Translations under genes and position numbers: made by a program
NCBI RefSeq assembly: GCF_053078305.1
Contig: NZ_CP166879.1
Reading direction: 5' to 3' (one strand)
Length of the DNA: 64,000 nt
Notes under the pieces: model-generated
What the model saw: the letters and a program-made list of their open reading frames with translations, nothing else
Database searches by the model: none
What the model was told of the DNA's origin: nothing
In this document: positions 982 to 1,231 of the stretch, one piece after another
How the letters are laid out: the number at the start of each line of letters is the position of its first letter
How positions within the stretch are numbered: position 1 is the first letter of the stretch

Positions 982-1058
982 TGGTGCGTTGTACTGGATT
1001 CGAACCAGTGACCGATTGCTTAGAAGGCAATTGCTCTGTCCGGCTGAGCTAACAACGC
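982..1058 (-). tRNA. Phage-encoded tRNA-Arg (anticodon UCU)
   Basis: 77-nt cloverleaf by hand folding: acceptor GCGTTGT/ACAACGC, anticodon stem ATTGC/GCAAT, loop CTTCTAA, T-loop TTCGAAT, 3' CCA. Confidence 0.75.
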
Positions 1059-1071
1059 AGTGTACAGATAA

Positions 1072-1148
1072 TGGACCGCCATCGAGGACTCGAACCCCGC
1101 GCAACCAGCTTCGAAGGCTGGCGCTCTATCCCGATGAGCTAATGGCGG
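1072..1148 (-). tRNA. Phage-encoded tRNA-Arg (anticodon UCG)
   Basis: 77-nt cloverleaf: acceptor CCGCCAT/ATGGCGG, anticodon stem CCAGC/GCTGG, loop CTTCGAA, T-loop TTCGAGT, 3' CCA. Confidence 0.7.
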
Positions 1149-1155
1149 TATGTGA

Positions 1156-1231
1156 TGGTGGCCCTTGCTGGATTTGAACCAGCGACCTGGCGATTATGAG
1201 TCGCTCGCTCTCACCACTGAGCTAAAGGGCC
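1156..1231 (-). tRNA. Phage-encoded tRNA-Ile2-like (anticodon CAU, lysidine type; Met not excluded)
   Basis: 76-nt cloverleaf closely resembling E. coli ileX as I recall it; anticodon loop CTCATAA; 3' CCA. Confidence 0.7.

Follow-up and report, generated by a model that had tools for sequence, protein, structure and literature searches.

A toxin-less ileZ-argN-argO tRNA cluster in a lambdoid prophage at serU and its probable role in the decoding of rare codons

Three tandem tRNA-like sequences occupy positions 982-1231 of the window (the whole stretch of 64,000 nucleotides analysed here). The locus raises the question of whether these are real tRNA genes, which codons they would read, and what a cluster resembling that of Stx-converting phages does in a prophage where no toxin gene follows it. 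Our results indicate, with a probability of about 0.85, that the trio is the ileZ-argN-argO operon of a lambdoid prophage at serU, and that it adds capacity for decoding rare codons.

ARAGORN called eight tRNAs in the whole window, and three of them coincide with 982-1231, all on the minus strand. Along that strand, the first is a tRNA-Ile2 gene of the ileZ type with anticodon CAU (1231-1156), followed by a tRNA-Arg of the argN type with anticodon UCG (1148-1072) and a tRNA-Arg of the argO type with anticodon UCU (1058-982). The spacers measure 7 and 13 bases, respectively, and the three co-oriented genes lie within about 250 bp. The tRNA covariance model of Rfam (RF00005, gathering score 29) placed them at the same coordinates, with 72.5 bits for ileZ, 56.1 bits for argN, the lowest of the trio, and 71.4 bits for argO (E-values from 1e-13 to 2e-9). 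Each of the three genes encodes its 3' CCA. Minimum-free-energy folding returned a cloverleaf for argN only and alternative folds for ileZ and argO; this was not counted against the latter two, because their covariance-model scores are high and alternative folds are common for unmodified tRNA sequences. Three ORFs that overlap the trio (773-1030, 874-1104 and 899-1177) are spurious, and RefSeq loci that are nearly identical carry no corresponding annotation. The trio thus consists of real tRNA genes, and the original prediction, which had proposed three tandem tRNAs with the anticodons Ile-CAU, Arg-UCG and Arg-UCU lying across spurious ORFs, is confirmed in its gene calls, its anticodons and its reading of the ORFs.

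The cluster belongs to a prophage that we place at serU, because an integrase ORF (18523-19548, plus strand) abuts tRNA-Ser(cga) (19601-19690, minus strand) at the prophage end. The best match to the first 24 kb of the window in the collection of complete genomes has 82% coverage and 97% identity. Two close relatives were used to read the region past the window edge and the late genes, since those of this prophage lie outside the window. Across the first 4 kb of the window, the locus of FHI_NMBU_11 has 99.9% identity; its prophage is integrated at ompW, not at serU. JNEC-KY171 carries a prophage at serU with an identity of about 97% to that of the window. Upstream of the trio, the gene of the late-gene antiterminator Q (2891-3580, minus strand) was recognised through Pfam PF06323 (E 8e-84) and is annotated as 'antitermination protein Q' in FHI_NMBU_11. 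Some 60 bases after its stop codon, the terminator scan found a hairpin at 2802-2831 on the minus strand (fold -16.7 kcal/mol, z -6.0), which, by analogy with lambdoid gene order, would hold the position of tR' of the late operon. It is followed on the same strand by a small conserved ORF of 65 aa (2481-2678; phrog_331, E 2e-37), annotated as a hypothetical protein in the FHI_NMBU_11, Stx2a_1447 and UC4224 loci, and by a terminator-like hairpin from the same scan (2477-2494, minus strand, -10.5 kcal/mol). Directly upstream of the tRNAs stands a gene for a DNA methyltransferase of the N6_N4 type, 352 aa long (2330-1272, minus strand; Pfam PF01555, E 7e-44, and PHROG DNA methyltransferase families), and the same gene precedes ileZ in Stx2a_1447 and UC4224. 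The trio, which starts at 1231, therefore does lie just downstream of a methyltransferase gene, as had been noticed.

Downstream of the trio, an intrinsic-terminator-like hairpin (967-950) with a T-run (949-944) was found by the scan on the minus strand at 944-967 (-11.9 kcal/mol, z -3.1); it begins 15 bases after argO. A second methyltransferase-like ORF then starts 86 bases after argO, with its ATG at 896 (1-896, minus strand), and runs off the window edge, which cuts away about 40 bases of its 3' end. This ORF matches PHROG 6380, 'DNA methyltransferase' (E 2e-78), and was classed as N6-adenine-methyltransferase-like; its Pfam N6_Mtase match and its hsdM-like matches are weak. In FHI_NMBU_11 and JNEC-KY171 the gene is annotated as a SAM-dependent DNA methyltransferase, and there it is followed by a nanS-type esterase, DUF1378, DUF826, holin, lysozyme, Rz, terminase and head and tail genes. 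The trio is thus located between Q with its terminators on one side and, on the other, a cargo slot, the nanS-type esterase and the lysis cassette.

Several other elements were recorded in the window. The prophage contains a sok antitoxin RNA (Rfam 121 bits) at 6707-6882 on the minus strand, in a region where FHI_NMBU_11 has an annotated hokD toxin gene. In the early region of the prophage, small RNAs stand in a row on the plus strand, namely DicF (14243-14294), isrK (14542-14618) and C4 antisense RNA (14644-14731), each of them scoring above its Rfam gathering threshold; the early region of FHI_NMBU_11 has an annotated dicB. Four identical tRNA-Asn(gtt) genes (20682, 35406, 37230 and 39638; within 20682-39713) flank an ORF of 2,691 aa (20995-29070), annotated in relatives as the inverse autotransporter adhesin YeeJ. 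The sRNA STnc240 lies at 51779-51853, and a histidine operon leader at 54151-54274 (Rfam 131.6 bits) is followed by eight long co-oriented ORFs, taken as the his operon, which extend to 61354.

The likeness of the trio to the cluster of Stx-converting phages is close. Compared with the annotated ileZ, argN and argO genes of Stx2a_1447 (AP012536), the three tRNAs are identical at 76/76, 73/77 and 76/77 positions, and they occupy the same position. A 401-base region around the trio has matches in 291 phage records, mostly Stx2-converting phages; 272 of these records cover at least 80% of the region, with identities of 80-99%, and several annotate ileZ, argN and argO. RefSeq annotates tRNA-Ile, tRNA-Arg and tRNA-Arg at the FHI_NMBU_11 locus. 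In Stx2a_1447 the order is small ORF, DNA methylase, ileZ, argN, argO, stx2A, stx2B and esterase. The block common to this phage and the window extends from 2827, in the first terminator after Q, to 944, with 95.2% identity by blastn. In the case of the Stx2a prophage of UC4224, the DUF968-RusA-Q region is shared with the window as well, the identity over 944-4000 is 96.4%, and stx2AB occupies the slot.

Homology with the Stx2 phages ends at 944, with the final T of the terminator that follows argO, and resumes before the esterase. Past 944, Stx2a_1447 has stx2AB (1,335 bp), whereas in the lineage of the window the methyltransferase-like gene, about 1 kb long, takes its place; across 5,426 complete E. 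coli genomes, only 11 have this gene. The part of the window downstream of argO comprises 981 bases, and in it a methyltransferase-like ORF stands where stx2A would start. A tblastn search with Stx2A and Stx2B against the window, FHI_NMBU_11 and JNEC-KY171 gave nothing better than E 0.2, so a toxin gene farther downstream was also rejected in the two relatives. Both the parallel with the ileZ-argN-argO cluster of Stx-converting phages and the statement that no toxin gene follows it, as originally predicted, hold on this evidence. A 40-bp piece between the T-run and the start of the slot ORF (901-940) is 97-100% identical in more than 500 genomes that do not have that ORF, and could mark a conserved border of the cargo slot.

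A cluster of this kind without stx is the common case. The 266-base cluster was found at 7,592 places in 3,061 of 5,426 complete E. coli genomes; matches covering at least 80% of it were present in 2,577 genomes, and a single genome may have as many as 13 places. By comparison, stx2AB, the one toxin locus counted, was found at 740 places in 599 complete E. coli genomes. With some 7,600 cluster copies against 740 of stx2, toxin-less copies are the majority and the usual state of the cluster. Genomes of O157:H7 have seven or eight copies each. A published analysis of 234 genomes found the most tRNA-Ile(CAU) genes, nine, in O157:H7 (PMC1635315), and our count fits that number. The cluster was already known and is widely annotated in RefSeq and GenBank; prior knowledge of it rests on these annotations and on two papers (PMC2858043, PMC1635315), and the window holds a further copy in the usual toxin-less state. 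As a discovery it is therefore of little weight, being annotated already and present in about half of the complete E. coli genomes.

What such a cluster would do can be proposed from its decoding. The trio would add decoding for codons that the core genes of E. coli avoid and that are commoner in phage and other acquired genes. The TilS enzyme of the host would convert C34 of tRNA-Ile2 to lysidine, so that AUA is read; tRNA-Arg(UCG) would serve CGA and CGG, and tRNA-Arg(UCU) would serve AGA and AGG. On induction, Q-modified RNA polymerase should read through the trio, because it lies in the late operon, 3' of Q and two terminators. The mature tRNAs would be released by RNase P and 3' exonucleases of the host, with the CCA already encoded. 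We infer expression, aminoacylation and a benefit to translation in the same conditional sense as the lysidine and the promoter described below.

The codon usage of the prophage agrees with this proposal in part. Twelve long prophage ORFs were compared with 25 host ORFs, all within the window, and frequencies are given per 1000 codons. AGA and AGG together reach 14.3 in the prophage and 3.6 in the host (odds ratio 4.0, p 8e-11), CGA and CGG 19.8 and 9.2 (p 1e-6), and AUA 9.3 and 6.0 (p 0.047). Taken together, the five rare codons stand at 43.4 in the prophage against 18.9 in the host part (p 1e-14), and at 6.8 in the eight ORFs taken as the his operon. The bias is not a simple effect of composition, because G+C is 0.488 in both parts. 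In the slot methyltransferase, AGA or AGG make up 44% of the Arg codons. The late genes of the closest serU prophage, set against the host genes of the window, have CGG at 17.3 versus 4.9 and AGA plus AGG at 10.8 versus 3.6, whereas AUA, at 6.1 versus 6.0, is not enriched. The idea that these are tRNAs for rare codons, and that a comparison of late genes with the host would reveal it, is thus supported for the Arg codons (about fourfold for AGA/AGG and twofold for CGA/CGG in the prophage ORFs, and for CGG and AGA plus AGG in the late genes), and weakly or not at all for AUA. Since AUA is barely enriched here and stands at 36.8 per 1000 in stx2AB, the Ile tRNA suits stx2 better than it suits the prophage of the window. 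Codon bias alone is no proof of a need for tRNAs, because acquired genes generally use more rare codons.

The conservation of the cluster was assessed in an alignment of eight diverse loci. Only one base, in one locus, differs in ileZ, and argO hardly changes, while spacers and flanks vary; the pattern would speak for selection on these two genes. In argN, four of the eight loci have lost the anticodon arm or have another sequence in its place, and ARAGORN makes no argN call in them; argN of the window is intact. Stx2a_1447 and UC4224 have two further bases, 'AT', in the spacer between ileZ and argN, and these are missing from the window (1149-1155, minus strand). Clade 8 of O157:H7 has been described as having lost 2 bp at this same place (PMC2858043).

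The same alignment points to transcription signals of the cluster itself. A putative promoter of the tRNA operon lies at 1241-1269 on the minus strand, with TTGCAG (1269-1264), a 17-base spacer and TATTAT (1246-1241); a G+C-rich stretch, CCTGCGCCC, fills 1240-1232, between TATTAT and the 5' end of ileZ at 1231. All eight loci keep TTGC-N-G, the 17-base spacer, TAT(T/C)AT and the G+C-rich stretch upstream of ileZ. Strain 20AR1039 has another antiterminator gene in front of the trio, and there homology sets in precisely with the first hexamer. A scan for consensus promoters listed none in front of the tRNAs; it missed the candidate because the first hexamer matches the consensus at only three of six positions. 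A 'pS tRNA promoter' is mentioned in the q-to-stx2 interval of O157 phages (PMC2858043). At the other end, the terminator at 944-967, conserved in six of the eight loci, forms the 3' edge of the conserved module, so that the boundaries of the module coincide with the candidate promoter and the terminator. This arrangement suggests that the trio is an autonomous unit of promoter, tRNAs and terminator inside the late operon, the promoter being judged from sequence and alignment.

Because of the apparent promoter and terminator of its own, the trio could also be expressed in the lysogen, and the most serious alternative to our reading starts from here. It holds that the trio mainly serves the lysogen, being transcribed constitutively from its own promoter and helping the translation of virulence genes and other prophage genes rich in rare codons rather than that of the late genes. 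The conserved promoter-like element and the terminator that bound the module are in agreement with it, as are the very wide distribution of the cluster with up to 13 copies per genome, the first rank of O157:H7 in tRNA-Ile(CAU) genes, and the lack of AUA enrichment in the late genes of the closest relative. The promoter is nonetheless a predicted one with a half-matching first hexamer, and from the place of the trio in the late operon a surge of expression upon induction is equally expected. We consider a mainly lysogenic function possible, though on balance doubtful.

It is unlikely that the tRNAs are passengers of a module between Q and lysis that often recombines, with no measurable effect in a prophage that may be defective. 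The decay of argN fits such a view: lost or decayed in four of the eight relatives and provided with an odd U73, this gene looks dispensable. The portal genes of the close relatives FHI_NMBU_11 and JNEC-KY171 are frameshifted, and AUA is without enrichment in the late genes. However, ileZ and argO are essentially invariant while the adjoining spacers and flanks vary, and all three copies in the window have high covariance-model scores and intact anticodon arms.

A broader reading, no more probable than the last, is that the trio is a portable unit with its own promoter, a G+C-rich stretch of the stable-RNA kind ahead of the start site, and a terminator, and that this unit recombines as a block among lambdoid prophages and is expressed in the lysogen. 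With copies accumulating to as many as 13 per genome, it would tune the host's translation of acquired genes rich in AGA, AGG, CGG or AUA, or act as a buffer against tRNA-cleaving toxins, and the slot next to it would be a general landing pad. If this were true, stx would be only the famous occupant of the slot and the rare methyltransferase another.

The sequences of the Arg tRNAs bear both on the decoding proposed here and on protection against tRNA cleavage. A20 and C35 are the main identity elements for the ArgRS of E. coli, and the alignment has A20 in the D-loop and C35 in the anticodon of both tRNAs. The Arg tRNAs of K-12 have the anticodons ACG (four genes), CCG, UCU and CCU, and to our knowledge no tRNA gene of K-12 has the anticodon UCG. 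With its UCG anticodon, argN should read CGA and CGG, and argO is predicted to read AGA and AGG. The first pair of argN, C1-G72, and its discriminator U73 are unusual; argO has A73, and the host Arg tRNAs have a purine at 73. RefSeq nevertheless lists argN as tRNA-Arg. Large lytic phages of the T4 and T5 types use tRNAs as spares against tRNA-cleaving enzymes, and colicin D targets tRNA-Arg. By analogy with these phages, the trio could be a set of spares against anticodon nucleases or colicin D, and two of its three tRNAs are indeed Arg tRNAs whose bodies are unlike those of the host (argO is identical to the host argU, also UCU, at 55/77 positions). Yet the anticodon loops, CUUCGAA in argN and CUUCUAA in argO, are canonical and of the same type as those of the host Arg tRNAs, so that no escape from such enzymes is obvious, and a search of the neighbourhood for a defence or counter-defence context found none. 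A role as spares is therefore very improbable.

The identity of the CAU tRNA completes the proposed decoding of rare codons by the trio. Aligned with tRNA genes of K-12 (from NC_000913.3), it is identical to ileX at 68/76 positions, to metT and metU at 54/77 and to the initiator metZ at 49/77. Its acceptor stem has the pairs C4-G69 and C5-G68, where metT has U4-A69 and A5-U68 instead. C4-G69 and C5-G68 are needed by the TilS of E. coli for the formation of lysidine (PMC1635315; PMC11947777), and these determinants are common to ileX and the prophage tRNA. RefSeq annotates an identical gene as tRNA-Ile, and several curated phage records give tRNA-Ile or ileZ. From the match to ileX, the two acceptor-stem pairs and the RefSeq annotation, the gene is assigned to tRNA-Ile2, and its product is a predicted TilS substrate that would read AUA once lysidinylated. 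That it might be an elongator tRNA-Met, as the ARAGORN label 'Met' and the name 'tRNA-Met' in some GenBank phage records would have it, is scarcely credible and was rejected, given the similarity to ileX, the acceptor-stem pairs unlike those of metT and the tRNA-Ile or ileZ annotations; ARAGORN prints Met for any CAT anticodon and cannot separate the CAU isotypes. The value for annotation is that the CAU gene is to be named tRNA-Ile2, not tRNA-Met. Genes labelled 'tRNA-Met' in large lytic phages, the T4-like ones among them, share about 80% identity with ileZ and are probably tRNA-Ile(CAU) genes that read AUA and have been mislabelled as Met.

Compared with known systems, ileZ and argO share their anticodons and predicted decoding (AUA, AGA/AGG) with ileX/ileY and argU of K-12, but the prophage copies are distinct from these chromosomal genes. 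T4-like phages also supply Ile(CAU) and Arg(UCU) tRNAs, for AUA and AGA; these phages, however, are large and lytic and have bigger tRNA arrays, synteny is lacking, and only the tRNA body is similar. The closest counterparts are the Stx2 phages (Stx2a_1447, Stx2a_WGPS8 and the 933W/EDL933-Stx type), which have the same anticodons in the same order and with the same spacing, the small ORF and the DNA methylase upstream, a terminator downstream, and the same position between Q and lysis. The Q gene of the window is unlike that of Stx2a_1447 and matches that of the UC4224 Stx2a prophage, and where Stx2a_1447 carries stx2AB the window has the methyltransferase-like gene directly after the T-run that ends at 944. 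Toxin-less prophages, among them those of E. coli 042, FHI_NMBU_11 and JNEC-KY171, have the same module without stx. The occupant of the slot varies: there is none in 042, DUF3927 and IraM in Ec55, Stx2e in ETEC4070 and the methyltransferase in the window. The trio marks the 'moron' slot between Q and lysis, in which stxAB has been cleanly swapped for a rare methyltransferase-like gene, and this swap shows how easily toxin and non-toxin cargo can be exchanged on one phage backbone.
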